In this document: positions 18,246 through 64,000 of the stretch, piece after piece
Numbering within the stretch: the stretch's first letter is position 1
Layout: every line of letters starts with the position of its first letter
Source: Desulfomonilia bacterium
GTDB lineage: Bacteria; Desulfobacterota; Desulfomonilia; UBA1062
Direction: 5' to 3'
Assembly (NCBI GenBank): GCA_963664325.2
Contig: CAXXDQ010000003.1
Location: forward strand, 480,001-544,000
DNA: 64,000 nucleotides
Notes under the pieces: generated by a model
What the model saw: only the letters and a program-made list of their open reading frames with translations
What the model was told of the DNA's origin: nothing
Databases searched by the model: none
Made by a program: the position numbers and the translations under genes

Positions 18246-18276
18246 TATAAAATCCCTTAATGCTTTGGTTCAAAAC

Positions 18277-19050
18277 TTATTCTCTGATTTCTTTGAGAAT
18301 CTTCTGCATTTTGGAACGAAGCCTGAGTATGGATTTTGTATGTATTTGAGAGACCCTTGATTCGGTGAACTTGAGCACATAGCCGATCTCCTTCATTGTA
18401 AGTTCATCATAGTAGTACAGCGAGATGACCATGCGTTCCTTTTCCGGTAATGACTGAATGGCTCGCGCAACCATATCTCTGGCCTCATTAAGCCCCATTT
18501 TGTGAGTGGGCCAGTCTTTTTCATCCTGCATGATGAATTCGAGAAGATTTCTTTTGGAAGAATCCTGGTTGTCTTCACCGAGATCATCCAGACTTAAAAG
18601 AGACACTGAAGCGGTCTCGGAAAGAAGACGATAAAAATTTTCCATGTCGACTTCGAGTTCGGTTGCAATTTCCTGGTCGTTTGCAGGCCTGCCAAGTGAC
18701 GACTCAAGCCTTGAATATGCATCCTCAATCTTTCGTGCCTTTTGCCTTACCGAGCGGGGAACCCAATCCATGGAGCGCAATTCGTCGAGCATGGCTCCTC
18801 TGATCCTGAATTCCGCATATGTCTTGAATTTGATATTCTTTGATGCGTCAAATTTTTCCATGGCATCGATAAGCCCTATTACCCCTGCATTTATGAGGTC
18901 GTGAATATCAATATGAGGCGGTAACCTCATTGCAATCCGGCTTGCAATATATTTGATTAACGGTGCGAACTCATTAATTACTTTCGCCCGTATCTTCGGA
19001 TCCGTGCGTTCATCATCTGTCAGGTCAGGAAACGCAATATCCAGCATCAC
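18277..19050 (-). CDS. fliA: FliA/WhiG-family sigma-28 factor
   Basis: GLIDA, FKTYAEFRIRGAMLDELR, DWVPRS and ESRVSQIH motifs. Confidence 0.93.
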   Translation of the reverse strand: MMLDIAFPDLTDDERTDPKIRAKVINEFAPLIKYIASRIAMRLPPHIDIHDLINAGVIGLIDAMEKFDASKNIKFKTYAEFRIRGAMLDELRSMDWVPRSVRQKARKIEDAYSRLESSLGRPANDQEIATELEVDMENFYRLLSETASVSLLSLDDLGEDNQDSSKRNLLEFIMQDEKDWPTHKMGLNEARDMVARAIQSLPEKERMVISLYYYDELTMKEIGYVLKFTESRVSQIHTKSILRLRSKMQKILKEIRE

Positions 19051-19908
19051 TTATCCTTTTTCACGGCTTCTAATATGCCTCTTGAAGAAAAACTGTAATG
19101 TGCCTTTTTCTTGTGGCGCATTAATACTATCTATTCTTTTTACAATTGCGGCCAATCTTCTGGTAGCTTCACTGCCGGGGTTGGTCTCAACAAAAGCCCT
19201 CTGTTCTCTTATGCTCTCCGGTATAATAGAATCATGCGGAATACTCCCAAGCATGTCAAGGGCAATATCCCCAAAAAATTTATCACATGCAAAAATTAAT
19301 TTTTTTATTACCTCCTTACCCTCATATGTAGAGAGCACATTATTGATGATAATTTCAAATCTTTTTATATTGAACCTGGCTCTCATGACTTTGATAAGGG
19401 CATATGCATCTGTTAAAGATGTGGGTTCAGGCGTTACAACGACGATGATTCTTTGTGCGGCGGAATTGAAGTATATGACATTTCCGGATATTCCGGCGCC
19501 GGTATCAACAAGCATATAATCGAAATCTTCATGATAATTATCCAGCGCATTTATCAGCATAAGCTGCTGTTCATATGACAGGACCGATAGTTCCTGAATC
19601 CCCGAAGAAGCAGGTAAAATCTTTATTCCTCCAGGTCCCTCAATAAGAATATCTTTGATTTTACAGTCACCCTGAAGCAGATGGTTGATATTATATTTGG
19701 CTGACAGTCCAAGCATAACATCTATATTCGCCAGTCCGAGGTCCGCATCAAACACAAGTACTTTCTTCCCCATGGATGAAAGAAGTATTGCCATATTAGC
19801 CACAATACTGGTTTTGCCGACCCCGCCCTTGCCTGATGTAATTGAGATTACCTGCGGAGAATTTTTCTTATTGCCGGATCGTTTATCAGTTTCAGGCCTG
19901 GGCATCAT
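19051..19908 (-). CDS. flhG: FlhG/FleN MinD-like ATPase
   Basis: SGKGGVGKT, DADLGLAN, DTGAG and PEPTSLTDAY motifs; upstream of fliA. Confidence 0.9.
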   Translation of the reverse strand: MMPRPETDKRSGNKKNSPQVISITSGKGGVGKTSIVANMAILLSSMGKKVLVFDADLGLANIDVMLGLSAKYNINHLLQGDCKIKDILIEGPGGIKILPASSGIQELSVLSYEQQLMLINALDNYHEDFDYMLVDTGAGISGNVIYFNSAAQRIIVVVTPEPTSLTDAYALIKVMRARFNIKRFEIIINNVLSTYEGKEVIKKLIFACDKFFGDIALDMLGSIPHDSIIPESIREQRAFVETNPGSEATRRLAAIVKRIDSINAPQEKGTLQFFFKRHIRSREKG

Positions 19909-20377
19909 TTTATTAAATCCCCTTCACTGCTACTTATTATATTGCAAAACCAATATGTCAATCTCAAGATTGAAAGCTATATTAACTGTACATGTAAATA
20001 AGATTTGAGTATTTATTTTTTAAAGTATTTTAAAAGATTTTAAAAGAGAGGAATTATGAAAGTTTTAAAAGAGTTGAGAAAATCTAATGGAACAGCTCTG
20101 AATGTCCTTTCCGGGAAATGTGCAATATCCGAAAAAAACTGGACCGATACGAACATAAACTCCCTAAAAGACCCTGCAAGAGGGTTTTTGGTAAGATTTG
20201 ACCAGCTCCGGATATTTCTTTCGGGGATTTTATGATGATAAAAAACAATTATAGTGCCGATATTGTGAAAATCGGACTAGGTAATGGGAACTAAATGTCT
20301 TCGGATGTGATAAGGTGTGGGACTGTTTACAGAAAATGGTTTTCTAACCGAATTTTCTTTTATACTGTGAGAAGTCT

Positions 20378-21220
20378 ATGAAACAGGTTTTCAAGCTATA
20401 TGGAAAATTTATTATTACCAAGCCTTTGAGTCTGTTCCTTGTCCTCGCCGTCTGTTCACTGGCCACTGCGCAGCTTGTACTTTTATCCAATATATCTGAA
20501 GCCCTTGTAAGTGAGAATATTCTGCCTGAATCGGTCAGAACGATAATGGTTTTTATAAAAAGCGGCACGTCTCAGGAAGAAATACAAAAGTTGCAGTCTG
20601 GTTTAGCCGGGATTAAGGGTGTTGATAGAACCATGTTTATTTCCCGGAAAGAGGGACTGAAAAAAATGAAGGAATGGCTCGGCAGCGACAGCCAGGTTGT
20701 ATCAGGCTTTGATGATAACATTCTGCCTGATGCCGTCGCTGTTATTCTTAAAGACTCTCATTTGTCATTAATGAAAAAAATCTCGACGGATATTGAAAAA
20801 ATTCCCGGTATTGATCAGACGAGGTACAACATTGAACTTGCAGGACGTACTGCATCTCTTTTTAAAGGATTTTCTGAACTGGTGATTTATATTCTTGGAT
20901 TGTATGCATTTTGCCTTGGTTTTCTTATATTTTGTTCAAATAAAATAAGACTGACAAAAAAGAATCCGCTGCTGTCTTACCGAGAGAGCCACCTATCTGT
21001 GAACCTGGCGATTTTTCTGGAAGGGGTTACATACACATTGATAGCAGCAGCAGTCGGAAGATATCTTGCTTATGTTGCGGCTGGGCAGGCGGCACTGATA
21101 GTGCCGGAAATAAGAAATCTTGTAACAATGCTGAATCTGAAGCCGGTATTAATCGGCATTGGTTTTTCTGCCTTATTCGGCATAGCTGGAACGGTCTTTT
21201 CCTTAAAGGTGCGGGAGTGA
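20378..21220 (+). CDS. ftsX: Divergent FtsX-like permease
   Basis: TM1 plus extracellular domain (FISRKEGL...LPDA); directly upstream of envC. Confidence 0.65.
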   Translation: MKQVFKLYGKFIITKPLSLFLVLAVCSLATAQLVLLSNISEALVSENILPESVRTIMVFIKSGTSQEEIQKLQSGLAGIKGVDRTMFISRKEGLKKMKEWLGSDSQVVSGFDDNILPDAVAVILKDSHLSLMKKISTDIEKIPGIDQTRYNIELAGRTASLFKGFSELVIYILGLYAFCLGFLIFCSNKIRLTKKNPLLSYRESHLSVNLAIFLEGVTYTLIAAAVGRYLAYVAAGQAALIVPEIRNLVTMLNLKPVLIGIGFSALFGIAGTVFSLKVRE

Positions 21221-22278
21221 GGATCTGTCTTAGTTTATTTGTAGTTATTCTGATGGTTCCTTTTGTTGTATGTCCTGCAAGCCTGGAAACAAGGATAAAA
21301 AAACTGGGTGAGAAGGCAAAGGTTGTTGATACCAGAAGGGCAACCGAAGAAAGGAATCTTCATTCAATTGATATAAAGCTCCGTTCAATGGAAAAAGATA
21401 TCTCAAGCCTTAAAAAAGTTATTGAACAGCGAAGAATGAAGATAATCGAGACATCAAGCCTGATTAAACTGTATGATGACGAACTCAAAAAGAACGAGGA
21501 AATATTAAGAGATAAAATCATCGACCTTTACAAAGCCCAGACCGTAGATTCCATTGAGAGTTTTTCAGGCCGGAGCAATCTGGCTCCGTATGCGGTTGTA
21601 TCAATATATGCAAGTGTCAAGGAGACGGAGAGATACAGACGCATGAAGGAACTGAAGGAGGAGGCTAAAAATTCTCTGGAAGAAGAGGAAGCAGCATTAA
21701 AAAAAGATATGAAAAAACTTGATAAAAAGATTTCCGAACTAGAAACAGAAAAGCAGAAAAAAAACAAGCTGCTTATTTCCCTGAAAAAAGAATCCATAAC
21801 ATATAAAAGTGAAATTGAAAGACTGATGCGTCAGCTTACGCAGAGAAAAAAATCAGAAGTTGTCATACCGGGAACAGGTCTCGCCAAGTTTAAGGGTATG
21901 CTGCCCTGGCCTGTTAAGGGGAAAGTTGTCCAGGGATTTGGCCGGCACAAAGAAACCGGAGTTTTGCAGATATCCCAGGGCATTGATATCAAGGCCCAGT
22001 CCGGAGAAAAGGTTAAATGCATTTATAAGGGCAAAGTAGTGTATTCAGGCTGGCTTGATATATTCGGTAACACCTTGATTGTTGATCATGGAAACGGATT
22101 CCATTCGGTTTACGGTTTCCTCGGGAAAGCAATAAAATCGCCGGGGCAGGATGTTGAAGCAAATGATTACATCGGTGTTACCGGTGAAGATGTTACACCG
22201 CCTGGAGCCAACCTTCATTTCGAGATAAGGTATAAGGGCAATGCCCTTGATCCTGCCAAGTGGCTGGAAGGAAGATAG
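21217..22278 (+). CDS. envC: EnvC-like murein hydrolase activator (coiled coil plus M23 domain)
   Basis: LPWPVKG, GIDI and LHFEIR motifs; first Zn-ligand His missing, as in EnvC. Confidence 0.85.
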   Translation: MRICLSLFVVILMVPFVVCPASLETRIKKLGEKAKVVDTRRATEERNLHSIDIKLRSMEKDISSLKKVIEQRRMKIIETSSLIKLYDDELKKNEEILRDKIIDLYKAQTVDSIESFSGRSNLAPYAVVSIYASVKETERYRRMKELKEEAKNSLEEEEAALKKDMKKLDKKISELETEKQKKNKLLISLKKESITYKSEIERLMRQLTQRKKSEVVIPGTGLAKFKGMLPWPVKGKVVQGFGRHKETGVLQISQGIDIKAQSGEKVKCIYKGKVVYSGWLDIFGNTLIVDHGNGFHSVYGFLGKAIKSPGQDVEANDYIGVTGEDVTPPGANLHFEIRYKGNALDPAKWLEGR

Positions 22279-37932: not shown

Positions 37933-39138
37933 TTAGAGTGCTGTCAAAACATTTTCGATATGCGTCATCGCCCAGTCGATTTCATCCTTTTTTATGATAA
38001 GAGGCGGGGCGAATCGTATGACGTGCTGATGGGTTTCCTTGCAGAGAAGGCCTTTTGCCATGAGGGCTTCGCAGAAACGCCTTGCGCCGCCTGCCGATGG
38101 ATAAAGTTCCACGCCGATGAGCAGCCCCCTGCCGCGGACCTCTTTAATATGCGGGCTCTTAATCATGGAAAGCCTTTCCATGAGATATGCGCCCATCTTT
38201 GCTGAATTCTCAACCATTCCCTCTTCGATGAGTACCTTGAGCGCCACGCGCGCCACTGCGCAAGCAAGCGGATTGCCTCCGAACGTGCTGCCATGGTCGC
38301 CTGGCTGGAAAACTCCGAGAACTTCCTTGTTTGAGAGAACTGCAGAAATCGGATAATAGCCTCCCGAGAGCGCCTTTCCGATAAGCGTCAGGTCGGCCTC
38401 AACACCTTCATGCTCTTCCGCAAGCAGCCTTCCGGTGCGGCCCAGGCCGGTCTGTATTTCATCGGTTATCATGGCGATATTCCGTTCAGTGCAGATGCGT
38501 CTGATTTCTTTCAGGTAGCCCATTGGCGGTATGATGATTCCGGCCTCGCCCTGGATAGGCTCGAGGAGAAATGCAACTGTGTTAGTCGTAATGGCATCTT
38601 CGAAGGCCTTTGAGTCGCCGAACGGTATTATTTTAAAACCCGGCGTGAATGGCGCATAGCCGTCCCGGTACTGAAATTCTGTGGAGAAGCCTACAATTGT
38701 GATTGTCCTGCCGTGAAAATTATTTTCGCAGACGATTATCTCGGCCTGACCCTCAGGCACGCCCTTTTCCCGGTATCCCCACTTGCGAACTGCCTTGATG
38801 CAGGATTCGACCGCCTCGGCCCCGCTGTTCATGGGCAGGATGGTATGAGAATTGGTGAGTTCGCAGAGTTCCTTATAGAAAAGCCCCAGCTGGTCATTCC
38901 TGAAAGCGCGTGATGTAAGTGTGAGCTTGTCCGCTTGCTCCTTCATCGCTGCTGCAATCCTGGGATGGCAGTGTCCCTGGTTTACGGCCGAATATGCAGA
39001 AAGGAAATCAAGGTATTTTCTGCCGTCGACATCCCAAACCCAGATGCCCTGGCCTTTTGTAAGGACGACATCAAGTGGTTTGTAGTTTGTTGCGCCGAAG
39101 GCGCTTTCAAGCTGGATATAATCTTTTGTATGCAGCAT
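37933..39138 (-). CDS. rocD: Ornithine aminotransferase
   Basis: [31 protein letters not shown] and HGSTFGGNP motifs. Confidence 0.93.
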
Positions 39139-39272
39139 AATTACCTCGAATGTCAGGATTTTTAGTTAAAAAAGAACATAATGTCTTTAAAAATTATGTC
39201 AAGCGGATGGTTTTGTTGACTTGCTTTTCTGTTATATGGCAACCTGCATTCATAACAGTTTCTGGAGGGATT

Positions 39273-40079
39273 ATGTACGCAATCGGATTCCTTGGTGCGG
39301 GAAACATGGCTGAGGCGATTATCGGCGGCATCATAAAAAAAGGTCTTTACCACTCTGCGGGTATTTCCGCCTATGACATAAGCAGCCAGCGCATGGAGCA
39401 CATGCTTTCACGATTCGGGCTGGTTGAGGCCGCCACCCCGCAGGACCTTGCAAAAGATGCGCGTACTATCGTCATTGCCCTGAAACCTGCCCAGGTGGCA
39501 ACAGCACTGGAACCCATAAAGAACGAACTTAAAGGCAAGCTTATTATAAGCATTGCAGCCGGCATTCCTATCAGGGCCATACAGTCTGTGCTTGGCGAAA
39601 AGGCAAAGGTAGTGCGTGTAATGCCCAACACGCCGGCCCTGGTGCTTGAGGGTGCAACCGCTATTGCCGGCTCATCAACATGCACTCATGAAGACCTGGG
39701 TATTGCCCGGGACATATTCTCAGGCATAGGCATATGTGTTGAGCTTGAAGAAAAACAGCTTGATGCCGTAACCGGGCTTTCCGGGTCCGGCCCCGCATAC
39801 TGCTTTGCCCTTATTGAGGCCATGGCGGACGGCGGAGTCCGTGCGGGCATTCCAAGACCTGTTGCATTGAGGCTGGCCGCCGCAACATTGAAGGGCTCGG
39901 GTGCCATGGTGCTCGAAACAGGCAAGCACCCTGCCGAGCTGAGAGATATGGTGACATCTCCTGGAGGCACAACTGCCGAGGGGCTAGCCGTGCTTGAGGG
40001 ACGGGGATTCCGCTCGGCGGTTAGCGATGCAGTGTGGTCTGCCTACAAACGTGCAGTTGAGCTGAGTTCAAAGGCATAA
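39273..40079 (+). CDS. proC: Pyrroline-5-carboxylate reductase
   Basis: GAGNMA, RVMPNTP, GSGPAY and VTSPGGTT motifs. Confidence 0.95.
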   Translation: MYAIGFLGAGNMAEAIIGGIIKKGLYHSAGISAYDISSQRMEHMLSRFGLVEAATPQDLAKDARTIVIALKPAQVATALEPIKNELKGKLIISIAAGIPIRAIQSVLGEKAKVVRVMPNTPALVLEGATAIAGSSTCTHEDLGIARDIFSGIGICVELEEKQLDAVTGLSGSGPAYCFALIEAMADGGVRAGIPRPVALRLAAATLKGSGAMVLETGKHPAELRDMVTSPGGTTAEGLAVLEGRGFRSAVSDAVWSAYKRAVELSSKA

Positions 40080-40081
40080 TA

Positions 40082-41200
40082 ATGAAGGATATAGCGTTCA
40101 GGCTGCTTGCCGAAGACGGCCGGGCAAGGCGGGGAGAATTTGCCACCGAACACGGTACTGTTCAGACACCTGCGTTCATGCCGGTCGGCACTGCCGGTTT
40201 CGTTCGCTCCACGCCAGCAAAGGATGTGGCTGAAACGGGTTCGGAAGTTATCCTGGCCAATACGTATCATCTGTCGCTGGGCGAGAGGCTTTTTTCGGTC
40301 AAGCACCTTGGCGGGCTTCATAAGTTCATGGGCTGGGACAAGACCATCCTGACGGATTCCGGAGGATTCCAGGTGTTCTCGCTTCCCGAACGGCAGATTA
40401 CCGAAGAAGGCGTTATTTTCAGTTATGAGGAAGGCGGTGAAAAGGTCACGCTTTCTCCCGAGCGCTCGATGGAGATACAGCGCGACCTTGGAGCGGATAT
40501 TGTCATGGCCTTTGACGAATGCGTGGCGTACCCCTCCGAGCATGACTACGTGAAGCGTTCGGTGGAGCGCACGACACGATGGGCAAGAAGATGCCTGGAC
40601 TTCAAGCTTGCCAAGCACCAGTTCCTGTTCGGTATCGTCCAGGGTGGTGTTTACGAGGATTTGCGCAAGAAGAGCGCGAAAGACATCACCTCAATGGGTT
40701 TTGACGGGTTCGCCATCGGCGGGGTGAGCGTAGGCGAGGGCCATGACCTGATGAAGCAGGCGGTAAGGTTTGCGGCACCCCTGCTGCCAGGGGACAAACC
40801 CCGGTATCTTATGGGTGTGGGACTGCCCGAAGATCTTATTGCAGCGGTTGGCCTGGGCATGGACATGTTCGACTGCGTCATACCTACGCGGTTTGCAAGG
40901 AATGCCACACTCTTTACACGCACCGGCAAACTGCGCATAAAAGACAAGTCATACAGGAAAGACCGCTATGCGATTGATACGAAATGCGGCTGCTACACCT
41001 GCCGGACGTATCCGCGGATGGTGCTCCGCTACATGTTCCATATCGGCGACCCACTGGCCGAGACTCTTGCCACCATACACAACCTTACTTTCTACCAGGA
41101 CCTTATGCGCGACATGAGGACAGCAATCGAAGAAGGCCGTTTCTACCGCTTTGCCGAGACATGGCTGGGGACATATCTGAACAAGGGGAAGAAGGAATAA
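40082..41200 (+). CDS. tgt: tRNA-guanine transglycosylase
   Basis: TPAFMPVGT, ANTYHL, TDSGGFQ, DMFDCV and Zn-binding CxCxxC...H motifs. Confidence 0.95.
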   Translation: MKDIAFRLLAEDGRARRGEFATEHGTVQTPAFMPVGTAGFVRSTPAKDVAETGSEVILANTYHLSLGERLFSVKHLGGLHKFMGWDKTILTDSGGFQVFSLPERQITEEGVIFSYEEGGEKVTLSPERSMEIQRDLGADIVMAFDECVAYPSEHDYVKRSVERTTRWARRCLDFKLAKHQFLFGIVQGGVYEDLRKKSAKDITSMGFDGFAIGGVSVGEGHDLMKQAVRFAAPLLPGDKPRYLMGVGLPEDLIAAVGLGMDMFDCVIPTRFARNATLFTRTGKLRIKDKSYRKDRYAIDTKCGCYTCRTYPRMVLRYMFHIGDPLAETLATIHNLTFYQDLMRDMRTAIEEGRFYRFAETWLGTYLNKGKKE

Positions 41201-41398
41201 TATTGGGAATATCATTTTTTATAATCGTGTTAAAAGTTTCTGTCCTGAGCGGGCTTCAGATGATTTGATACTAAGATGTGATAGAAGGTAAATGATATTC
41301 ATTTTCAAGATAATAAAATTTGTTACTGTTTCTAATTGATTATGAAACTTTCCTGCTGTAATTAATAAAATGTTTTTTTAATAATGGGAGGTGCAAAA

Positions 41399-42667
41399 AT
41401 GTCATCTTCACCTGAAATTATCAAGCAGCAGGCCTTAAAGGATTTTGCCGAATTCATCAACCCCATGAAGGTCAGGACAATGAAAAGCGCCGGCATTGAC
41501 ATCATCGAGGAAAAGCGCAGCGGTGCGTGTTCGTGGGACATTACAGGAAAACGCTATATAGACTGCCAGACTGGCTCTGGCATCATGAATGTGGGAAGAG
41601 GCAATCAGGAGATAGCGGAAGTGCTCAAAAAAGCTCTCGACACCTACGACATCGGCGTGTTCCTGCTCTGCTCCAAGCAGAAGGCTGATCTCGCAAAGAG
41701 GCTCGCCGAGATCACTCCCGGCGACCTTGCCTGCACGATGTTCGGTGTTGGGGGCGGTGAGGCGATAGACGCAGCCATCAAGATTGCACGTGGCTTCACG
41801 ATGAAACCGGGAATCATCTATGCCGATAAGGCCTATCACGGCCATACCGGATTCGCGCTGTCAGCAATCGGCAGGGAGGCATATAAGGAGTCGTTCCATC
41901 CTCTGATGCCTGGTTTCACAATGGTCCCCTTCGGTGATGCCGATGCAATCAGAAAGGCTGTCAACAAGGATACGGCCGCAGTCATCCTCGAAACCATACA
42001 GGGCGAGGGCGGCATCAACATCCCGCCGGACGGATATCTGGCCGAGGTCAGAAAAATATGCGATGAAAACAATGTGCTGCTGATCCTTGACGAGATACAG
42101 ACCGGCTTCGGCCGCACCGGAAAGATGTTCGCCTGTGAGCACTGGGAAGTGGTCCCGGACATAATGACTGTAGCCAAGTCGCTTGGCGGCGGCATTTACC
42201 CGATATCGGCGACGATATTCAAGGAGGAGATCAACGACTTCTTCATCCCGCATCCATTCGTCCACCTTTCGACGTTCGGAGGCTCCGATCTTGGCTGCAT
42301 AGTTGCGATGGCTGCAATCGACTACATCATTAAAAACGATTTGCCGGCCAAAGCGGAGAGAATGGGACAGCGTTTCAGGGCAGGGTTTGACAGGCTTTTA
42401 AAGGAATATCCCGACCTGCTGCTTGAAGTCAGGCAGAAGGGGCTCATGATGGGCCTGCAGTATACAAATGAATCCATCGGACCGAGGATGACGAAGAAGC
42501 TTTCCGAAAGGGGCGTGCTGGCTGTTTATACAGGCAACGACCCGAGCATTTGCAGGTTCATGCCGCCGCTGGTCATTTCCCCTGAAGAAGTGGATGAGGT
42601 GCTGAATGCACTCGAAGACTCAATGAAGGAACTTTCGAAAGAAAAGGGCATCGGTAAAAATGACTAA
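41399..42667 (+). CDS. Class III PLP aminotransferase (putrescine/acetylornithine-AT-like)
   Basis: YHG, IQGEGG, DEIQTGFGRTG, AKSLGGG and STFGG motifs. Confidence 0.9.
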   Translation: MSSSPEIIKQQALKDFAEFINPMKVRTMKSAGIDIIEEKRSGACSWDITGKRYIDCQTGSGIMNVGRGNQEIAEVLKKALDTYDIGVFLLCSKQKADLAKRLAEITPGDLACTMFGVGGGEAIDAAIKIARGFTMKPGIIYADKAYHGHTGFALSAIGREAYKESFHPLMPGFTMVPFGDADAIRKAVNKDTAAVILETIQGEGGINIPPDGYLAEVRKICDENNVLLILDEIQTGFGRTGKMFACEHWEVVPDIMTVAKSLGGGIYPISATIFKEEINDFFIPHPFVHLSTFGGSDLGCIVAMAAIDYIIKNDLPAKAERMGQRFRAGFDRLLKEYPDLLLEVRQKGLMMGLQYTNESIGPRMTKKLSERGVLAVYTGNDPSICRFMPPLVISPEEVDEVLNALEDSMKELSKEKGIGKND

Positions 42668-52016: not shown

Positions 52017-52889
52017 TCAATCTTCTAAAGAAAGCTTCCAGAAGCCGTTTTCAAGGATGGCTCTAGACGGTTCGCCGGGCCGTGGCGGTTGTTTAAGTGC
52101 GGCGTCTGAATATCCCGGGTCATACGGCAGCCTGACACCGGTGATTGTTTCTTCGGTAAATACTTCGGGCTGGATTGAGGGGATATCCTTCGTTGCTGCA
52201 TAAACGAAAAGCTCATTTATCGTACCGAAAGAGGAAAGTTCCCTGAGAGTCATGAGCGTTGGCGGCATAAGCAGTATTTCACGTTGCCCGCTGAGCCCGA
52301 TAGCCTCATGGGGATTCATCCATTCTGCGCTTGTGAGCTCTTTATTGTCATGGAGGGCTTCCTGGCCGGAGGGGAAGCGGGCAAGGAAAAACCATGTGTC
52401 AAACCGTGTCTTCATAATTGCAGGCGTTATCCAGTGAGCGAAGGGGGTGAGGTCTTCAGGCGTGAAGATAAGACCTTCTTTTTGAGCCATTTCAGCAAGC
52501 GTGATTTTCCCGTCATGTATGTCCTTGCGATATTCTTTGAAGCGGCTTGATGCAGGTTCAACGGACAAGTTGAGCGTTCCGCCGAAAGCGTTTTTCGCAA
52601 GCAAGATGGAAGACTCCTCGAAAAGTTCGCGGATTGCGGCAAAGAAAAAACCGGATGCAGTTCTTTCATCCATATCATCAGTTTTCAGCATCGCTTTTGC
52701 CTTATTCCCGTTAAACTCCCTGCAAAAGCTCATAAGCACTTCATCTTTATCCGTTTCTTCTACAGCACCGCCAGGATAAACCGTGGCCTTGGCTATGAAA
52801 GAGTCATGCGTGCTTCTTTTCATGAGCAGGGTTTCCATCGGCTCCCTTATTACAATTACTGTGGATGCTTTCCTGGGCTCGGCAACCAT
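52017..52889 (-). CDS. NUDIX hydrolase (Nudt19-like)
   Basis: PGG.VE, AAIRELFEE, HWITP and RFDTWFF motifs. Confidence 0.85.
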   Translation of the reverse strand: MVAEPRKASTVIVIREPMETLLMKRSTHDSFIAKATVYPGGAVEETDKDEVLMSFCREFNGNKAKAMLKTDDMDERTASGFFFAAIRELFEESSILLAKNAFGGTLNLSVEPASSRFKEYRKDIHDGKITLAEMAQKEGLIFTPEDLTPFAHWITPAIMKTRFDTWFFLARFPSGQEALHDNKELTSAEWMNPHEAIGLSGQREILLMPPTLMTLRELSSFGTINELFVYAATKDIPSIQPEVFTEETITGVRLPYDPGYSDAALKQPPRPGEPSRAILENGFWKLSLED

Positions 52890-53552: not shown

Positions 53553-53871
53553 AGAAGGCGATCTTCCACAAGCACGGGAGGTTATGGTATCGCATGTCCC
53601 GGTCTTGGCGCGACAGTTATTTTATTCAAAGTGAAGATGGTGCACCAGGGTCGCGGCTGTTACTTGAAAACCGGGAGTGATCTGAATAAAAGGTATGCGG
53701 AATCATGGCCCGATATTGATTGAAAGCAGTATTTCAGTTCAAGGAATATCCGGTCCGTTTCTCACCGTATCATTGGCTATGCAGCAGAGGATATTCACAC
53801 CGGCTTCCTCCTCAGTAATGCTTTTTCAAATGTTTCCGATAAGTTCGTCATAACCATTTTGGAGGCATGCT

Positions 53872-54954
53872 ATGAAAAAGATTACTTTTACAAGGATATT
53901 ATCCGTATTTACATGTATATTGTTTATGAGTATGTCAGGCTGCGGCGGTGGCGGTGGCGGCGGCGGAAGCAGTGACAGCAGCCCGAGCAGCGGGACCCCT
54001 GAACTGCTCAGCACATTTGGTGATGATGTAGCCGCATGCACACCCCAAATCCAGAGTAGAGGTAAAACCATTCCCGGGGCCGAGGGCGTAGGTACCATAA
54101 CAGATTGGACCGGATGGGATGTGACTCAAGAGAACACCATTTTCTATAATCTGTTCACTACCGATTGCATCGAAGGCCTATTCGATCCGATAGATAAAGC
54201 GGACATGTTCATCACGATCATCAACAGCTTCAGTGATTACTGGCAGACAAGCGGCGAATACAATGACGTCATACTGCCAATATTCAATACAACGGCAAAC
54301 CTGACGGTAGATACGAGCGTAAACAGTGTGAACATCCCGTTCTTCGGAGGCAATCAGGCTGTCGACCGGCTTATAACGGTTGAAGGTACGCTTGACGGGC
54401 TGACAGGCTTTGAAGCCCAGATGGCTTTCACCACGAGTGCTGACGGAGAGGCTATTGTTGTGTGGACACACTTTCCCGGCAAAGGTGAAACAAGCATGTT
54501 CTTCGGGAGAAAGGATGCTGCAGGCGAGATGGATGCATGGGCCGCATGCTTTGTTGACCAGGAAACACCGGACACCTCTGATGACTTCCAAATGGCTCTA
54601 AAATGGAAGGGCAATCCCAGCGAGAAACAGTTTGCAGTAACCCAGTATAAAAGCGGCGGCATCACTGCCCAGATACTGGCCGGGGGTTCTCCGGAAAGCG
54701 ACATGGCTTTCCTGGCCAAACTTGACAGTGCTGACGATGTCGCAGCAAACGGCGATCCGTATTACCTTGTCTGCACCAATGAAGACATTACTGAAAATAC
54801 ATTGCCTCACCCTGATATAGTCAACGGGACATTAACGCCTCCGTATGAGGTTGATAATGATGTACTCAAATATATTGAAAATGGTAATGACTACTGTCTC
54901 GGTTATCTCACTTCATACCCGGAACAGGCATCTGATGTGCAAGCCCTGAATTAG
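53872..54954 (+). CDS. Hypothetical lipoprotein with poly-Gly linker
   Basis: MSGC lipobox followed by G8; GGAGG RBS. Confidence 0.8.
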   Translation: MKKITFTRILSVFTCILFMSMSGCGGGGGGGGSSDSSPSSGTPELLSTFGDDVAACTPQIQSRGKTIPGAEGVGTITDWTGWDVTQENTIFYNLFTTDCIEGLFDPIDKADMFITIINSFSDYWQTSGEYNDVILPIFNTTANLTVDTSVNSVNIPFFGGNQAVDRLITVEGTLDGLTGFEAQMAFTTSADGEAIVVWTHFPGKGETSMFFGRKDAAGEMDAWAACFVDQETPDTSDDFQMALKWKGNPSEKQFAVTQYKSGGITAQILAGGSPESDMAFLAKLDSADDVAANGDPYYLVCTNEDITENTLPHPDIVNGTLTPPYEVDNDVLKYIENGNDYCLGYLTSYPEQASDVQALN

Positions 54955-54997
54955 CTCTTTCTCTCGGTCGGGCATAGGACAATCCTTTTCGATCCGA

Positions 54998-55040
54998 AAT
55001 GGGCGAGATCGGCATTTATGCTGATCTCGCCCATTGATTT
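54998..55040 (+). terminator. Long hairpin terminator
   Basis: AATGGGCGAGATCGGCAT/ATGCTGATCTCGCCCATT. Confidence 0.7.
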
Positions 55041-55405
55041 CAATATCTGGTCTTTTCTCCGGCCAGCCTTACATAAGCACCTTAAGAAAATACTGTGAAA
55101 GGACTGAGTAAGGATCATAAGCAGAACAGTTATAATCGCCTGTACTCTTTTTTCACCGGCACCGAATGATATGTTTCCATGTCCTTGTGTAATCCTGCTC
55201 CTGGGGCATCCCTGTAAATTACAAGCTCGTGTTTCCTGGCGACGCCTTCTTCCCTGGCTTTACTGGATTTTTCAACCAGTTCATTACGTTCTTTTCTGTT
55301 CCCGGCGTTTTCCATGAATATGCCTGCAAAGCCCGGGGTCCTGGACTTTTTTCGTGGAGCTCTTTGTCGGTCTTGAAAACGGCGTTATCTCTCATGTTAA
55401 TTGCG

Positions 55406-56173
55406 CTATTTCAATTTCCCGATGAAAAGCCTTGTTTCATATTCGAACATGACATGATTGTCTTGCGAATGCATCTCGAACAATGCTTTCAATCCGGCCA
55501 TCAGGGAACCATATCGGGGATTGTCAGGAGTTGGCGTATATGATGAAGAGAGCATTCTTCCCGCAAGGCCTTCAAAGTCAAAGCGCTGAACATTATAGAA
55601 TATGAATAACTTGAAGGAGTCATTACCAAAGAACTTTCTGATCACCGTATCATCTATATTCCTATGATTGGCTGAACCGTATTCGGGCACATATTTTTCC
55701 AGGAGCCGGTCATAGGCATTTTGAAAAGGTGAATCCGTTTTTCTCTGGTTCCAGATAAGGGCTGAAAAACCATCCGGTTTAAGAATCCGTCGGAATTCCT
55801 GCCTGCAGATATCCAGGTCAAACCAGTGGAAGGACTGCGCAGCGGTGATAAGGTCTATTGATCGGGCATCCAGACCTGTATTCTCAGCCGTACCGGAAAT
55901 GCTTTCAAAAAGCTTGTTTCCGTTGAACCTGTCTTCTGCGGCAAGCCTCATTTCATTGTTGGGTTCAACCGCAAAGACCCTTAATCCTGCATTTATCAGA
56001 AGAGCCGTAAATATTCCGGTTCCCGATCCGATATCTGCAATCAAGGAATTTTTATCAATGCGGCAGTTTAATATCAATGTATCGATGGCTTCTGTCGGGT
56101 AAGATGGTCGATACTTAACGTAATTTTCTACACGGTTGGAGAACCTTTCTGTCGGATAATTTCCTGTCTTCAT
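55406..56173 (-). CDS. Class I SAM-dependent methyltransferase
   Basis: YRPSYP, DIGSGTG, VEPN and AQSFHWFD motifs. Confidence 0.9.
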   Translation of the reverse strand: MKTGNYPTERFSNRVENYVKYRPSYPTEAIDTLILNCRIDKNSLIADIGSGTGIFTALLINAGLRVFAVEPNNEMRLAAEDRFNGNKLFESISGTAENTGLDARSIDLITAAQSFHWFDLDICRQEFRRILKPDGFSALIWNQRKTDSPFQNAYDRLLEKYVPEYGSANHRNIDDTVIRKFFGNDSFKLFIFYNVQRFDFEGLAGRMLSSSYTPTPDNPRYGSLMAGLKALFEMHSQDNHVMFEYETRLFIGKLK

Positions 56174-56367
56174 ATCACACCTTACTTTTCTCGGAGTAAT
56201 AACCATGTGAAATAAACCTGTAAAGCAGTATCTTTTACAATTTTTGAGGGATATGTCCTGCGGATTTTCTTGAAGCCTTAAGTTACCTGTTATTTAAATT
56301 TCTTGACAGTGATTTACCGCATATTATACGCATTCGGCTATTATTCTTGCAGTACCGGAGGCATAAA

Positions 56368-57570: not shown

Positions 57571-57750
57571 CAGGCATAGCCCCGTCGGCGGTGCAACCCG
57601 GTCTTTCTTGAGGCTGCCATGATTGTATGCCGGATTCTAATGCGGATAATGCCGGCGAAAGAATAAAACTCTTTTATATGATGGTATATTTGTGCAATAA
57701 TTTGGAGGATTATCATTTCGTGATTATAAATAAATTCTGAGGAGTTGCTT

Positions 57751-59080
57751 ATGTCCAGGGCAAAAATGAGTAATCGTGATCTAATAACATTGATAATGTT
57801 GTTTTTAATGACAACAATTCTCTATGCGGACCAGAGCATCATGTCGGCAATTATTCCTGAACTCTCAAAGACATTTGGTGTCCGATGAAGGCACTCTAGG
57901 TTATGTAGGTTCAGCATTTGTCATCGTAGGTGCAATAATGAGTCTTACCTTCGGTTATCTTGCAGACAAGAAATCACGCAAGATGCTTTTTGTTTTGGCA
58001 ATATTAGTTGGAGAAGTTCCCTGCATATTAACAGGCATAAAATATTTTACACCGGATATATACTGGTTCACTGGTCTCAGAGTGCTTTCAGGAATAGGGT
58101 TAGGCGCATTGTTCCCTCTTACTCATTCTGTTTTGGCAGATTACTTTACTGAAGAACACAGAGCATTTGCCGCCGCATGGATGGGTGCTGCCTGGGGGAT
58201 TGGAAGCACAATTGGAGTTGCTGTTGCGGGTTACCTGACAAATATGGATCTCTTCGGACTTGGCTGGAGAATTTCTTTTATTCTGATTGGCGTTCCGAAC
58301 ATACCTCTTGTTCTTGCATTCTGGGCATACGCAAAAGAACCCGAAAAAGGCAGGGCTGAGGATGCCTTGGAGGAGCTTAATCAGGAAGGAGTGGTGTACA
58401 AACAGACAATAAAATGGAGCGACTTCAAGATCATTGCTTCAAACAAAACCAACATATTCACAATGATTCAGGGTATTCCCGGCTCCATTCCCTGGGGTAT
58501 CTTTGCATATTGGCCTGATCACGTATTTCAGGACAGTCCGAGGTGTTTCTCAGGAAATGGCTACCACTATTTTTCTGGTTTTAGGTATTGGAAGCACTCT
58601 GGGTGGTGTATTCTGGGCTTACATCGGTGATAAGCTGTACAAAAAAGATCCAAGGTATATGCCGATTTTATGTGGAGTAGTTGTACTTTTAGGAATTGTT
58701 CCAACAGGAATCATACTTAATGTGCCGATTGAGCAATAATGTATATATGATATTCGGTTTCCTTACAGGATTTATTGTTTCCGTTGCTGCTGCCCAATTA
58801 TAAAGCAATTCTCATGAATGTTAACAGACCAGAGAACAGGGGAAGCGTTTTTGCTGTTTCAAATATCGTTGCCGACAACATAGGAATGGGACTTGGACCA
58901 ATGGTCGGAGGGCTTCTTCTGTCCCAAGGCTATCAGTTCATGATGAATTTTGCTATATCCTGGTGGATACCTTGCGGCCTGCTTTTCCTGATGGCAGCAA
59001 AATATATTACTAGGGACAGGGATGTTCTTCAGGCTTATCTGACAGAGCAGGCAAAGTTTATGGAGAAAGAGAAGGCATAG
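57751..59080 (+). pseudogene. MFS transporter disrupted by four +1 frameshifts (pseudogene or sequence error)
   Basis: ATG 57751 with GAGGAG RBS. Removing one base at about 57882, 58514, 58725-58734 and 58793 gives a continuous 441-aa MFS (ADQ, GYLADKKSRK, NRPENRG). Confidence 0.8.
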
Positions 59081-59117: not shown

Positions 59118-59771
59118 CTATCTTGATTTAGTTACACCGATTCTATTGCAATAACCCGTTATTTTACATTTTGAACAGAACGGGCTAACCGGCAAACACA
59201 GATTCTGGCCGTAGGGCACAAGCAGGTTATTAATTTCCTTCCAGTGTTTTTTAGGGAGTTTTTTTCTAAGGGCCATTTCTGTTTCATCTGGATTTTTAGT
59301 CTTAACATATCCCCAGCGGTTCGTAATTCTGTGGACATGAGTATCAACACAAATTCCCATTTTATCAAAACCGAGGATCAGTACAAGGTTTGCAGTTTTT
59401 CTTCCCACACCAGGAAGATTCAATAACTCATCAAGATTGTCAGGTACCCTGCCGCAATATTTGACTAATATTGTCAGTGAGGTTTCTATAATATTTCTGG
59501 CCTTGGTGTGATAAAAACCTACAGGAAATATAGCCTTTTCAATTTTATCAACAGGTACTCCAATCATTTTATCAGGGCTGCCTGCAATTGAAAAGAGTCT
59601 GTCGGCAGCTTCATGCGTTGTTGAGTCTTTTGTTCTGAGGCTCAGGATTGTTGATATAAGGACTTTATAAGGGTCATGTTCTCTGGCAACTATTCCCACG
59701 ATAGGCTCCTGCCAGAATGATATCTCTTTTCTGAGTATGCTGAAAACTTTACTGATATTCGAGTTATGCAT
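59118..59771 (-). CDS. nth: Endonuclease III
   Basis: HhH motif LPGVGRKTAN, VDTHV and 4Fe-4S CxxxxxxCxxCxxxxxC. Confidence 0.93.
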   Translation of the reverse strand: MHNSNISKVFSILRKEISFWQEPIVGIVAREHDPYKVLISTILSLRTKDSTTHEAADRLFSIAGSPDKMIGVPVDKIEKAIFPVGFYHTKARNIIETSLTILVKYCGRVPDNLDELLNLPGVGRKTANLVLILGFDKMGICVDTHVHRITNRWGYVKTKNPDETEMALRKKLPKKHWKEINNLLVPYGQNLCLPVSPFCSKCKITGYCNRIGVTKSR

Positions 59772-59947
59772 AAAAATATTTTACCGATATTCCCAATAAG
59801 GCTCAATCAATTATTATTTTTTACAAGATGAAATTAAATTCAGAGACATAGGAAAAAAATTTCCGTATAAATCCTGAATCATGTTAAATTAAACACTATC
59901 AATCTTAATAACCGATTGATATTAAATTAACAATTTAATATAAGTAA

Positions 59948-59964
59948 TAGGCATGGTTCATGCA
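59948..59964 (+). promoter_or_regulatory. Candidate sigma54 (-24/-12) promoter
   Basis: TAGGCATGGTTCATGCA has GG-N10-GC spacing, in AT-rich DNA about 70 nt before ATG 60036. Confidence 0.5.
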
Positions 59965-60035
59965 AATAAATATAGTTTAATAAATCATAAAATATTTTAT
60001 ATTGATTCAAACTAACCGGATTACGGGGGACGCGA

Positions 60036-63000
60036 ATGATGGAATATATTTATTCAAAAGATTCAATCAGCAAAGGGCCTGAACTTAATATTCTTCCTTA
60101 TTTTGCAAACACCCTTCCTGAGCTTTTGAAAAATGCAATTACAGTAGGCGTCAACAAGGGGATTATTTTTGTTGAAGCCGACGGGTCCGAAACGACATTA
60201 CTCTATAAAGACCTGCTGGAAGAAGCGTCCAGAGTATTAACCGGTCTCAGGTCAAACGGGATGAAGGCCGGGGACAATGTTGTGATACAGGTTGACAATG
60301 ACAGGTATTTCCTTCTGGCCTTTTGGGGCATTGTTCTGGGAGGCGGTATACCTGTTCCACTTGCAATTCCAAACAGTTTTCCAATAAGTGAAGGTTCTGA
60401 AAAGGTTGCGAGCGTCTGTTCTCTGCTCAGGAATGCTTTTATTGTTACGGACCAGGACCCGTCGGGATACAGGGATGTTGTTTCAAGGGCAGTGCTGATT
60501 GTCAGCGATCTTGCAGACAATGAACCTGACAGGAATTATAATGATCCTGATCCTGATGATATCGCATATGTGCAGTTTTCTTCGGGATCGACAGGCGATG
60601 CCAAGGGGGTTATACTCACTCACAGGAATATACTTGTCAACATTTATGCAATAATAGAGGCATCAGGCAATCCGGAACAGCTAAGAATAAGAGACGAGCT
60701 GCTGGGCAAACCGTTAGAGGCGACTGACATACCATACAGCACATGCAGCTGGCTGCCCTATTCCCATGATATGGGGCTGATCGGTTTTCATCTTACACCG
60801 ATGGCCGGAAGCATCATGCAGATCAAGATGTCCACGACCACTTTTGTTATCAATCCGACATTAAACCTTCTTCTGATTGACAAATACAGGATAACACAGA
60901 TACCGAGTCCCAATTTCGGTCTGCTGTGGATGCTGTACATGATTAAAGATGAAAGCATAAAGGGCATCGACCTTTCATGTGTTGACGCTCTTTTTAACGG
61001 TGCTGAACCTATTTCCCCGATGGCTGTGAGGCTGTTTATCGACAGGTTCAGGCAATACGGATTCAACCCCAAGTCCATGTTCCCCGTTTACGGAATGGCC
61101 GAAGCGTCACTATTGGTTACCGCACCGCCAAGGAATAGTGAAACTTTATATCACATGCTGGACAGGGGATCCTTCACTGAAAATCATGTTGCCGTTGATG
61201 CAAAGACAGACCTTCCAGTCATCGAATTTGTTGATGAAGGTTACCCTGCAATGGGGATGGAGCTGAGAATTGTCGATAGCGAAGATAATGTGGTCAATGA
61301 AGGAAAAGTTGGTCATATACAAATCAAGGGACCGAATGTAACCAGCGGCTATTACAAAAAAGAAGAATTGAATTCGGAGCTGTTTTGTGACGGATGGCTC
61401 AGGACCGGAGACCTTGGATTCCTTTTAAATGATAGGCTGACTGTTACGGGCCGTCATAAGGATGTTATATTTGTCAACGGTCAAAATTATTATTCACATG
61501 ACATCGAAGAAGAGCTTCAGCAGTTACCATTTGTGGGTTTTAAAAATATGGCTGTTTGCGGGGTTACGGACCATGACAGAGGCACTGAAAATATAGTGCT
61601 TTTCATTAAGACTAAAAAATCCAAGGAAAGCCTGATTGAATTGCTTGAAAAGATTAACAAGCATCTCGGAGTAAAGATCCGGGTGGGAATTGAAGCCATT
61701 GTTCCGATGCATGACATACCAAGGACAACCAGCGGCAAGGTCCAGAGATTTATATTAAGGGAAAAATATGAGGCCGGAGGTTTCAGAGACAGGGAAATCA
61801 AAAGACTGGATCAACGTATATCTCCTTACAGTGACCAGAGGACAGAACGCAAACATTCGAATCTTTCGATCAGCAAAGGGCCTGAACTTAATATTCTTCC
61901 TTTTTTTGCAAACACCCTTCCTGAGCTTTTGAAAAATGCGATCACAGTAGGCGTCAACAAGGGGATTATTTTTGTTGAAGCCGACGGGTCCGAAACGATA
62001 TTACTCTATAAAGACCTGCTGGAAGAAGCGTCCAGAGTATTAACCGGTCTCAGGTCAAACGGGATGAAGGCCGGGGACAAGGTTGTGATACAGGTTGACA
62101 ATGACAGGTATTTCCTTCTGGCCTTTTGGGGCATTGTTCTGGGAGGCGGTATACCTGTTCCACTTGCAATTCCAAACAGTTTTCCAATAAGTGAAGGTTC
62201 TGAAAAGGTTGCGAGCGTCTGTTCTCTGCTCAGGAATGCTTTTATTGTTACGGACCAGGACCCGTCGGGATACAGGGATGTTGTTTCAAGGGCAGTGCTG
62301 ATTGTCAGTGATCTTGCAGACAATGAACCTGACAGGAATTATAATGATCCTGATCCTGATGATATCGCATATGTGCAGTTTTCTTCGGGATCGACAGGCG
62401 ATGCCAAGGGGGTTATACTCACTCACAGGAATATACTTGTCAACCTTTACGCAATAGTGGAGGCATCTGGCAATCCGGAACAGCTAAGAATAAGAGACGA
62501 GCTGCTGGGCAAACCGTTAGAGGCGACTGACATACCATACAGCACATGCAGCTGGCTGCCCTATTCCCATGATATGGGGCTGATCGGTTTTCATCTTACA
62601 CCGATGGCCGGGAGCATGTTGCAGATCAAGATGTCCACGACCACTTTTGTTATCAATCCGACATTAAACCTTCTTCTGATTGACAAATACAGGATAACAC
62701 AGATACCGAGTCCCAATTTCGGTCTGCTGTGGATGCTGTACATGATTAAGGATGAAAGCATAAAGGGCATCGACCTTTCATGTATCGATATTCTTTTTAA
62801 CGGTGCTGAACCTATTTCCCCGATGGCTGTGAGGCTGTTTATCGACAGGTTCAGGCAATACGGATTCAACCCCAAGTCCATGTTCCCCGTTTACGGAATG
62901 GCCGAAGCGTCACTGATGATTACCGCACCGCCAAGGAATACTGAAACTGTGTATCATCTGCTGGACAGGGAGTCATTTTCAAAAAAGCATATAGCGGTTA

Positions 63001-64000
63001 ATGCCAAAGAGGATCTCCCTGCCATTGAGTTTGTTGACGAAGGTTATCCGGCTATGGGCATGGAGATCAGGATAGTCGATGACGATGATGACGTTGTAAA
63101 AGAGGGAACGGTCGGCCATATACAGATAAAAGGACCGAATGTAACCAGCGGCTATTACAAAAAAGAAGAATTGAATTCGGAACTGTTCTGTGACGAATGG
63201 CTCAGGACCGGGGACCTTGGTTTTCTATTAAAAGGGAGACTTACGGTCACCGGGCGTTTCAAGGATGTCATTTTCGTTAACGGCCAGAATTACTATTCCC
63301 ATGACCTGGAAGAAGAGCTTCAGCAGTTACCGTTTGTAGGTTTTAAAAATATGGCTGTTTGCGGGGTTACGGACCATGACAAGGGATCAGAATCTATCGT
63401 TCTTTTTATTAAAACAAAGAAACCCAAGGAAAATTTGATTGAATTGCTTGAAAAGATTAATAAGCATCTCGGAGCAAAGATCAGGGTGGGAATTGAAGCC
63501 ATTGTTCCGATGCATGACATACCAAGGACAACCAGCGGCAAGGTCCAGAGATTTATTTTGAGGGAACGTTATGAAGCAGGTGACTTCAGAGACAGGGAAG
63601 TCAGAAGGCTTGATCAGCGTATATATCCTGAAAATGACCGAAAAATTGAGCATGAAATCATAAAAAAGGAAGAGGTTCACTACAAAACTAAGGATATTGA
63701 TCTAAAAGGATTATTGAGTGATATGCCTTATGCCCTTGCAGAATCCAACGTGCATCAGTTTCTGCCGCATATAGTAAAAAATCTTCCTCAGGTACTTAGG
63801 ATAGCAAGCCTGATTGCGCCAGATAGCGGAATATTGCATGTGGACGAATATGGGAATGAAAATCTCCAGACTTATTCCGAGCTGATGAATTCGGCTGAAA
63901 GAGTTTTGGGCGGACTTAGGGCTAAAGGTTATAAATCAGGTGATCAGGCTATTCTTCAGATAGAACAATCAAGGAACTTTCTATCTGCTTTCTGGGGGAT
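60036..64000 (+). CDS. 3'-truncated large protein with at least three tandem fatty acyl-AMP ligase-type adenylation domains (NRPS/PKS-associated type)
   Basis: Hand translation shows an open frame from ATG 60036 (GGGGGA RBS) to the window end. QFSSGSTGDAKGV, SWLPYSHDMGLIG, NGAEPI, YGMAE, RTGDLG, GRxKD and TSGKVQR each occur twice. A third domain starts near 63720. Confidence 0.9.
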   Translation, partial: MMEYIYSKDSISKGPELNILPYFANTLPELLKNAITVGVNKGIIFVEADGSETTLLYKDLLEEASRVLTGLRSNGMKAGDNVVIQVDNDRYFLLAFWGIVLGGGIPVPLAIPNSFPISEGSEKVASVCSLLRNAFIVTDQDPSGYRDVVSRAVLIVSDLADNEPDRNYNDPDPDDIAYVQFSSGSTGDAKGVILTHRNILVNIYAIIEASGNPEQLRIRDELLGKPLEATDIPYSTCSWLPYSHDMGLIGFHLTPMAGSIMQIKMSTTTFVINPTLNLLLIDKYRITQIPSPNFGLLWMLYMIKDESIKGIDLSCVDALFNGAEPISPMAVRLFIDRFRQYGFNPKSMFPVYGMAEASLLVTAPPRNSETLYHMLDRGSFTENHVAVDAKTDLPVIEFVDEGYPAMGMELRIVDSEDNVVNEGKVGHIQIKGPNVTSGYYKKEELNSELFCDGWLRTGDLGFLLNDRLTVTGRHKDVIFVNGQNYYSHDIEEELQQLPFVGFKNMAVCGVTDHDRGTENIVLFIKTKKSKESLIELLEKINKHLGVKIRVGIEAIVPMHDIPRTTSGKVQRFILREKYEAGGFRDREIKRLDQRISPYSDQRTERKHSNLSISKGPELNILPFFANTLPELLKNAITVGVNKGIIFVEADGSETILLYKDLLEEASRVLTGLRSNGMKAGDKVVIQVDNDRYFLLAFWGIVLGGGIPVPLAIPNSFPISEGSEKVASVCSLLRNAFIVTDQDPSGYRDVVSRAVLIVSDLADNEPDRNYNDPDPDDIAYVQFSSGSTGDAKGVILTHRNILVNLYAIVEASGNPEQLRIRDELLGKPLEATDIPYSTCSWLPYSHDMGLIGFHLTPMAGSMLQIKMSTTTFVINPTLNLLLIDKYRITQIPSPNFGLLWMLYMIKDESIKGIDLSCIDILFNGAEPISPMAVRLFIDRFRQYGFNPKSMFPVYGMAEASLMITAPPRNTETVYHLLDRESFSKKHIAVNAKEDLPAIEFVDEGYPAMGMEIRIVDDDDDVVKEGTVGHIQIKGPNVTSGYYKKEELNSELFCDEWLRTGDLGFLLKGRLTVTGRFKDVIFVNGQNYYSHDLEEELQQLPFVGFKNMAVCGVTDHDKGSESIVLFIKTKKPKENLIELLEKINKHLGAKIRVGIEAIVPMHDIPRTTSGKVQRFILRERYEAGDFRDREVRRLDQRIYPENDRKIEHEIIKKEEVHYKTKDIDLKGLLSDMPYALAESNVHQFLPHIVKNLPQVLRIASLIAPDSGILHVDEYGNENLQTYSELMNSAERVLGGLRAKGYKSGDQAILQIEQSRNFLSAFWG
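60062..63629 (+). repeat. In-frame direct repeat with 1803-bp period (60062-61826 and 61865-63629)
   Basis: Near-identical sequence at offset 1803 (601 codons); duplicated shadow ORFs 60203/62006 and 60788/62591. Confidence 0.95.

Follow-up and report, generated by a model that had tools for sequence, protein, structure and literature searches.

The window analysed here, the whole 64,000-nucleotide stretch of Desulfomonilia DNA, closes on a gene that raises an unusual question: what is encoded by a reading frame that begins with two complete adenylate-forming domains and the start of a third, set head to tail without a carrier domain between them? The giant open reading frame (ORF) starts at an ATG on the forward strand and is free of stops up to the window edge, where its 3' end is open (Table 1). 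A stop-free run of this length has a chance probability of ~1e-33, by our own arithmetic from a local GC content of ~0.44. We favour, with a probability of roughly 0.6, the reading that the window ORF forms the N-terminal end of a lipopeptide non-ribosomal peptide synthetase (NRPS) and serves as its lipoinitiation (loading) module, with the fatty acyl-AMP ligase (FAAL) starter domain present in several tandem copies. The lipid tail of a lipopeptide, which is chosen at FAAL loading, governs its membrane activity and toxicity (PMC11837247, section 4.2).

Profile and sequence searches agree on the layout of the ORF. Pfam places AMP-binding (PF00501) in two stretches (E 9e-92) and reports one AMP-binding_C and no PP-binding domain; a match to the DIP2-like AMP domain is marginal (29.6 bits against a cut-off of 27). 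A phmmer comparison with residues 1–600 as the query returns domains at residues 1–600, 607–1201 and 1241–1321, the last of them weak (50.5 bits), and the two complete FAAL-type domains are spaced 601 residues apart. A carrier (T-domain) profile derived from L002, a relative with three T domains, recovers 3/3 of these domains in L002 and has zero matches in the 1321 residues of the window ORF with filters off and E<=100. The first linker, KRLDQRISPYSDQRTERKHSNL, lies at residues 589–610; in the third domain, whose homology to domain 1 runs from residue 1241, the stretch beginning SGILHVDEYG stands at residue 1264. At ~22 and ~50 residues, the two linkers are too short for a carrier, which needs ~70. 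No hidden stop or carrier was found within the window ORF. The preliminary description, drawn from the letters of this DNA, had proposed two complete adenylation domains followed by a divergent third with no carrier between them, quoting the first linker, without a carrier site, and the start of the third domain; its account of the layout stands in all these respects.

The continuation of the gene can be read from its relatives. The closest locus found in the genome-contig search, L002, has 75% identity to the window ORF, is collinear with it (Table 1) and shares ten upstream genes with the window in conserved order. The third domain of the window is 68.9% identical to residues 1221–1339 of the L002 ORF, where the third FAAL of L002 starts. 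The L002 ORF is complete at 4541 residues and reads FAAL-FAAL-FAAL-T-C-A-T-C-A-T-C, with C for condensation and A for adenylation domains (Pfam on 30 overlapping 300-residue slices of L002:10001–23626); a second NRPS ORF comes after it. The FAAL count in L002 stops at three, and a carrier follows. A carrier and a condensation domain after the ligase are also seen in the relative P0122; in the window gene they would lie beyond the edge. Because the syntenic L002 has this architecture, the window ORF is best explained as the loading module of a lipopeptide NRPS and not as a new system; the earlier suggestion of an undescribed system gives way here to the loading end of an ordinary NRPS.

The assignment to the FAAL class rests on motifs, pocket residues and structural models. 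Both complete window copies carry the A3, A5, A7, A8 and A10 motifs of the ANL superfamily, whose structures are the top Foldseek matches, and both read SSGSTGDAKG at A3 and TSGK, so that neither is a dead first copy of the type known from PyrG. In PMC8460268, the hallmarks of the E. coli FAAL are W224, M231, F279 and a helix (T252–R258) that blocks the canonical coenzyme A (CoA) pocket, and an alternative 4'-phosphopantetheine pocket is lined by the prolines P107 and P226. In an alignment to the E. coli FAAL structure 3PBK, whose chain numbering is that of PMC8460268 minus one, the equivalents in domain 1 are W239, M246, F294, a gap-free segment at 267–273, P112 and P241. Domain 2 shows zero differences from domain 1 at these positions, so both window copies keep the CoA-blocking residues and helix together with the pocket prolines. 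The W, M and F hallmarks are also kept in the last FAAL of L002, and P241 is invariant in 79/79 aligned FAAL domains. Domain 1 aligns to the E. coli FAAL with small gaps at ~364–404, where McyG has a gap of at least 12 residues; this segment may correspond to the FAAL-specific insertion of the N-terminal domain. Modelled with AlphaFold2 on an alignment of 79 sequences, domain 1 reached a pLDDT of 86.4 and a pTM of 0.81, and the Foldseek neighbours of the model are 6ULW (the best), 3PBK (TM-score 0.81, normalised to the target), McyG, an olefin-synthase FAAL and FadD32. The best NCBIfam model is NF006624, 'fatty acyl-AMP ligase', at 330 bits for domain 1, 334 for domain 2 and 296 for the last FAAL of L002. 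As these scores fall below the 600-bit cut-off, we file the domains under the FAAL class and not under the NF006624 subfamily. All three window domains are thus classed, from their sequences, as FAAL-class ANL domains, which bears out the earlier view of them as FAAL-type starter ligases.

The stacked domains are of two types, a and b. The b-type FAAL always comes last, directly before the T domain, and has an insertion of ~85 residues after the A3 motif; the a-type stands upstream and has ~25 residues inserted at the same place. The two types are ~45% identical. In the domain tree, support is 100/100 for the b clade and 88/88 for the a clade. In a tree with single loaders added, P0126 (b-T-C-A...), P0128 (b-T) and P0130 (b-T-aminotransferase) nest within the b clade, and the a clade holds tandem copies only, among the sequences examined. 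For this reason, the b-type is read as the ordinary loader lineage and the a-type as a paralogue that, within this sample, occurs only as an upstream add-on. The b-type insertion was modelled in L002 (domain at L002:13724–15685; overall pLDDT 87.6) as four helices at residues 219–275, with a pLDDT of 72–93 for the block. Since the insertion is also present in P0126, P0128 and P0130, loaders without upstream a-type copies, it is not tied to the tandem layout. The a-type insertion is confidently modelled as a helix (213–223) plus a loop.

The number of a-type copies varies among relatives. One copy is found in L001/P0005, P0004, P0006, P0007, P0122 and L005, and two in the window, L002, L004/P0002 and P0003. 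The fragment P0123 has at least two, and at least three occur in one metagenome-assembled genome (MAG), whose gene is broken inside the repeats over contigs L003 and L006: L003:7578–12233 and L006:3–2795 together hold at least three a-type copies plus a b-type copy, and the assembly of this MAG probably broke on the FAAL repeat. Six motif patterns (A3 P-loop, HDMGL, A5, A7, A8 and the A10 lysine) are all kept in 15/15 complete a-type copies and in 6/8 complete b-type copies. The b copy of P0007 has HVMGL in place of HDMGL. The b copy of P0003 (residues ~1224–1880) is degenerate: its A3 reads SSGSKRDSRG, A8 and A10 are missing, and the carrier directly replaces the C-terminal subdomain. Both a-type copies of P0003 are intact.

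Tandem FAALs are rare in the searches made. With domain 1 as the tblastn query, they were present in 6/78 loci (L001–L006); in L017, two matches proved to be one domain split in two pieces and not a tandem. The protein set comprised, besides the query, 246 proteins, assembled from the best 120 matches among longer proteins and the best 150 from 1.84 billion representatives; as these are best-match lists, more distant tandem families could exist. Among the matches listed, FAAL-like domains are adjacent in nine of the 246 proteins (P0002–P0007, P0122, P0123 and P0173) and far apart in 11, and the rest have one. P0173 (1347 residues, from a Flavobacteriales MAG) is an unrelated, stand-alone FAAL-FAAL-T protein. 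Because its two FAALs are each other's sisters, it is an independent duplication and hence an independent origin of the tandem layout; with P0173 as the query, none of the other 119 matches listed covers more than 54% of it.

In the loading module that we favour, each FAAL would make an acyl-adenylate, several intact FAALs would share in cis the single T domain that follows them, and the acyl chain would then be condensed with the first amino acid by the first C domain. As the substrate-side halves of the two a copies of this genome are homogenised, with 12 differing positions, mostly conservative, over residues 6–355, the two probably take the same acid and would raise loading capacity without widening specificity. 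Acyl preference may differ between the a-type and the b-type, as it may between the a copies of other lineages, where two such copies are 53–73% identical in the N-terminal (substrate-side) half. The multi-substrate platform proposed in the preliminary description is consequently unlikely for copies 1 and 2 and may hold for the a-type versus the b-type. More tentatively, the module may act as a multi-headed platform, in which several active ligases grouped about a single carrier together determine loading rate and acyl spectrum, with duplication and gene conversion adjusting the copy number; we consider this possible, though clearly short of probable.

Several points weigh against the favoured reading. 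For this gene, the T and C domains are predicted from relatives, as the window ends before them. Carrier loading by a-type copies is likewise a prediction, and in the known tandem A domains (PyrG, AurA and Dol15D-M2) one copy is inactive or dispensable. In P0003, where the b-type copy is degenerate and truncated, an a-type copy would have to load. The best solved-structure sequence match is a keto-acid-selecting A domain, 6ULW, which ranks above the E. coli FAAL, and the window domains reach the curated cut-off of no NCBIfam FAAL model (330 versus 600 bits).

The strongest competing explanation is that the b-type FAAL alone loads the carrier and that the a-type copies are accessory, as a scaffold, as a sink or feeder of fatty acids, or as ligases for another acceptor in trans. 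It would account for the b-type standing alone before T in P0126, P0128 and P0130, for a-type copies that never adjoin a carrier among the sequences examined, and for an a-type copy number that ranges from one to at least three while the carrier number is constant; the non-loading copy of the tandem A-domain modules PyrG, AurA and Dol15D-M2 is a precedent. An accessory role sits poorly, however, with the P-loop, A7 Asp, A8 Arg and A10 Lys kept in every one of the complete a-type copies, with the 4'-phosphopantetheine pocket prolines kept in the window copies, and with strong purifying selection on both of these. P0003 also speaks against it, as its two intact a-type copies accompany a b-type without A3, A8, A10 and the C-terminal subdomain. 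We judge this explanation to be unlikely, without dismissing it.

A second, independent uncertainty concerns the substrate, which could be a non-fatty carboxylic acid (a 2-keto, aryl or phenylalkyl acid), in which case the product would not be a classical lipopeptide. It arises because the keto-acid-selecting NRPS A domain 6ULW outscores the E. coli FAAL: the matches to solved structures are 6ULW (with 6ULX; 267 bits), the loading domain of McyG (4R0M; 247 bits), the E. coli FAAL 3PBK (224 bits, E 1e-65) and the Legionella FAAL 3KXW (197 bits, E 1e-57). The HDMGL motif of domain 1 nevertheless recurs in the E. coli and Legionella FAALs, whereas the corresponding residues are HIGGI in 6ULW and HVGAI in McyG. 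The residues and the helix that block the pocket in FAALs are kept, and the best NCBIfam model is that of a fatty acyl-AMP ligase. Moreover, the Pfam slices of the L002 ORF contain no ketoreductase (KR), unlike the A-KR-T and C-A-CAL-KR-T keto-acid modules, and none follows the ligases. A non-fatty substrate therefore seems improbable, and a fatty acyl starter is preferred.

The two complete domains are also a DNA repeat, a feature on which the preliminary description was silent despite their ~92% protein identity. The direct repeat within the ORF has an offset of 1803 nucleotides, equal to 601 codons. In 100-nucleotide steps, the copies are 94–100% identical from ~60100 to 61100 and 72–89% identical from there to ~61800. 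Over codons 6–600, the synonymous (dS) and non-synonymous (dN) divergences are 0.278 and 0.044 (dN/dS 0.159; protein identity 91.8%), and they differ sharply between the two parts: codons 6–355 give dS 0.049, dN 0.018 and dN/dS 0.369 (96.6%), versus dS 0.872, dN 0.082 and dN/dS 0.094 (84.9%) for codons 356–600. These values mark the 3' part of the repeat as old and both window copies as being under purifying selection. The trees of the two domain halves conflict. The N-terminal-half tree pairs the two window copies as sisters (SH-aLRT 99); in the C-terminal-half tree, whose topology has moderate support, copy 1 groups with the first-position copies of relatives (SH-aLRT 91) and copy 2 falls just outside (SH-aLRT 88). 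The disagreement indicates an older duplication with later gene conversion of the 5' 1050 nucleotides.

That the repeat is an assembly artefact, with one FAAL copy written twice or a true copy number different from that in the window, is the weakest alternative and very improbable: short-read assemblers do handle ~1050 nucleotides at 94–100% identity poorly, and in the related MAG the gene is broken inside the repeated region (the end of L003, the start of L006), but a doubled or collapsed assembly would yield identical copies, not a 3' 735 nucleotides at 72–89% identity with dS 0.87 and dN/dS 0.09, the frame is continuous through both repeat junctions, and the independent assemblies L002, L004/P0002 and P0003 have the same a-a-b order. 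On the 3' divergence of the copies and these independent assemblies, mis-assembly, a concern raised beforehand, was rejected and the repeat taken as real.

Upstream of the giant ORF, the window encodes ClpA, leucyl/phenylalanyl-tRNA protein transferase, PPK2, an HD-domain protein, a NUDIX-like protein, a Cys/Met pyridoxal-phosphate (PLP) enzyme, a major facilitator superfamily (MFS) transporter and a divergent endonuclease III. As these genes are ordinary, the giant ORF opens a new unit that leaves the window. A GGGGGA sequence lies at the end of the AT-rich 264-nucleotide intergenic region (59772–60035) that the ORF shares with the divergent endonuclease III gene. A promoter scan of 59700–60100 found five sites against 2.6 +/- 2.2 in shuffles, which is not above the shuffles, and Rfam and tRNA scans of the window found nothing. 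The MFS transporter gene is broken: its match to the intact 442-residue L002 orthologue is scattered over three frames as four or more pieces, and no ORF within it exceeds 268 residues. It is probably a pseudogene, given that the neighbouring 3963-nucleotide ORF is intact. A segment of ~2.8 kb between the HD-domain and Cys/Met PLP genes has no counterpart in the syntenic L002. The NUDIX-like gene is 56% identical to its L002 counterpart, against 78–95% for the flanking genes. In 2-kb steps across the window, the GC content ranges from ~0.39–0.40 up to ~0.52 (18001–22000 versus 38001–42000).

Table 1. Positions of the giant ORF, its predicted parts and the upstream features discussed, in window coordinates.
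Feature	Position	Strand	Remarks
5' part of putative giant NRPS gene (window ORF)	60036..63998	+	1321 codons; residues 1–1321 collinear with residues 1–1339 of the L002 ORF, 74.9% identity
Shine-Dalgarno-like, G-rich GGGGGA	60025..60030	+	5 nt before the ATG, read from the sequence
FAAL domain a1, complete	60036..61799	+	residues 1–588; all core motifs
Linker 1	61800..61865	+	residues 589–610; no carrier motif
FAAL domain a2, complete	61866..63602	+	residues 611–1189; all core motifs
Linker 2	63603..63755	+	residues 1190–1240; no carrier motif
Start of third, divergent b-type FAAL	63756..63998	+	first 81 residues, truncated at the window edge; match to domain 1 at 50.5 bits
Tandem DNA repeat, copy 1	60052..61830	+	copy 2 at 61855–63633
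Homogenised, gene-conversion-like tract	60052..61100	+	94–100% identical to 61855–62903
MFS transporter gene, broken	57745..59077	+	
Segment without L002 counterpart	53553..56346		
360-residue ORF within this segment	53872..54954	+	no Pfam match
Class I methyltransferase within this segment	55406..56206	-	
NUDIX-like gene	52017..52889	-	

As far as we have found, a stack of intact FAALs that varies in copy number is an undescribed variant for bacteria, and the arrangement is rare. Searches of open-access PMC and bioRxiv for tandem FAALs returned the papers on the eukaryotic DIP2 proteins only, and no paper came back for FAAL domains described as double, duplicated, consecutive, or two or three in number. 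The 2025 FAAL review PMC11837247 sorts bacterial FAALs as stand-alone, as FAAL-acyl carrier protein (ACP) didomains or as embedded, with mycosubtilin and the iturins as examples; it lists single FAALs only, and 'tandem' or 'duplicat' occurs 0 times in its text. The earlier judgement that a stacked layout is not standard agrees with this survey. With two to four intact FAALs to a single carrier, such a natural stack would offer a new means of controlling tail choice or loading rate and a ready-made template for engineering, and whole-catalytic-domain copy-number change with within-gene conversion among close relatives is useful for the study of assembly-line evolution.

The locus resembles several known systems, each in part. 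With FAAL-initiated loading of an NRPS or polyketide synthase, it shares an N-terminal FAAL ligase with its hallmarks kept, followed, as L002 shows, by a carrier and then the assembly line; there is one FAAL in those systems, whereas two to four stand head to tail before a single carrier here. In MycA, a ketosynthase and an aminotransferase follow the ligase; neither follows here. Two alternative FAAL starter modules, on separate proteins, reportedly occur in puwainaphycin-type clusters. Several separate FAALs may also feed one pathway, such as FAAL22 and FAAL29 in the mycobacterial phenolic glycolipid (PGL) cluster (PMC11837247); these share with the locus the use of more than one FAAL per pathway, but they are separate proteins with their own acceptors, while the copies here are fused and would serve one carrier. 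The keto-acid-selecting A domain 6ULW/6ULX gives the highest sequence score and the best Foldseek match, yet it is without HDMGL and is embedded with a KR. Tandem A domains are known from PyrG (pyridomycin) and AurA (auriculamide) (PMC10510592) and from the Dol15D-M2 module, C-A-CAL-KR-T (PMC13643306). They likewise place two adenylate-forming domains in a row for one carrier, but one copy has no A3 motif, has no catalytic lysine or can be dispensed with, and the module continues with a KR, whereas both complete copies here are intact and under selection.

The DIP2/CPS1 proteins of fungi and animals come closest in arrangement, with two FAAL-like domains (FLD1-FLD2) head to tail and no carrier between them. 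DIP2 begins with a DMAP1-binding domain and stands outside any NRPS context, whereas the ORF here starts with a FAAL and its relatives continue into an NRPS; the window ORF is not of the DIP2 type and shares the tandem arrangement alone. The FAAL-like domains of DIP2 are ~16–22% identical to bacterial FAALs (PMC8460268 and the DIP2 preprint). According to PMC8460268, neither prokaryotes nor plants show the three-domain architecture of DIP2, in which two FAAL-like domains are fused; the supplement (12 of its 16 files searched) records a tandem FAAL-like didomain form in some plants; the DIP2 preprint presents the tandem didomain as a novel organisation in the evolution of FAAL-like domains. The window offers a bacterial case of a tandem-FAAL layout whose discussion had been confined to eukaryotic DIP2, and, if the multi-headed platform is true, it would be a biochemically tractable bacterial counterpart of the DIP2 didomain, whose need for two domains is unexplained.

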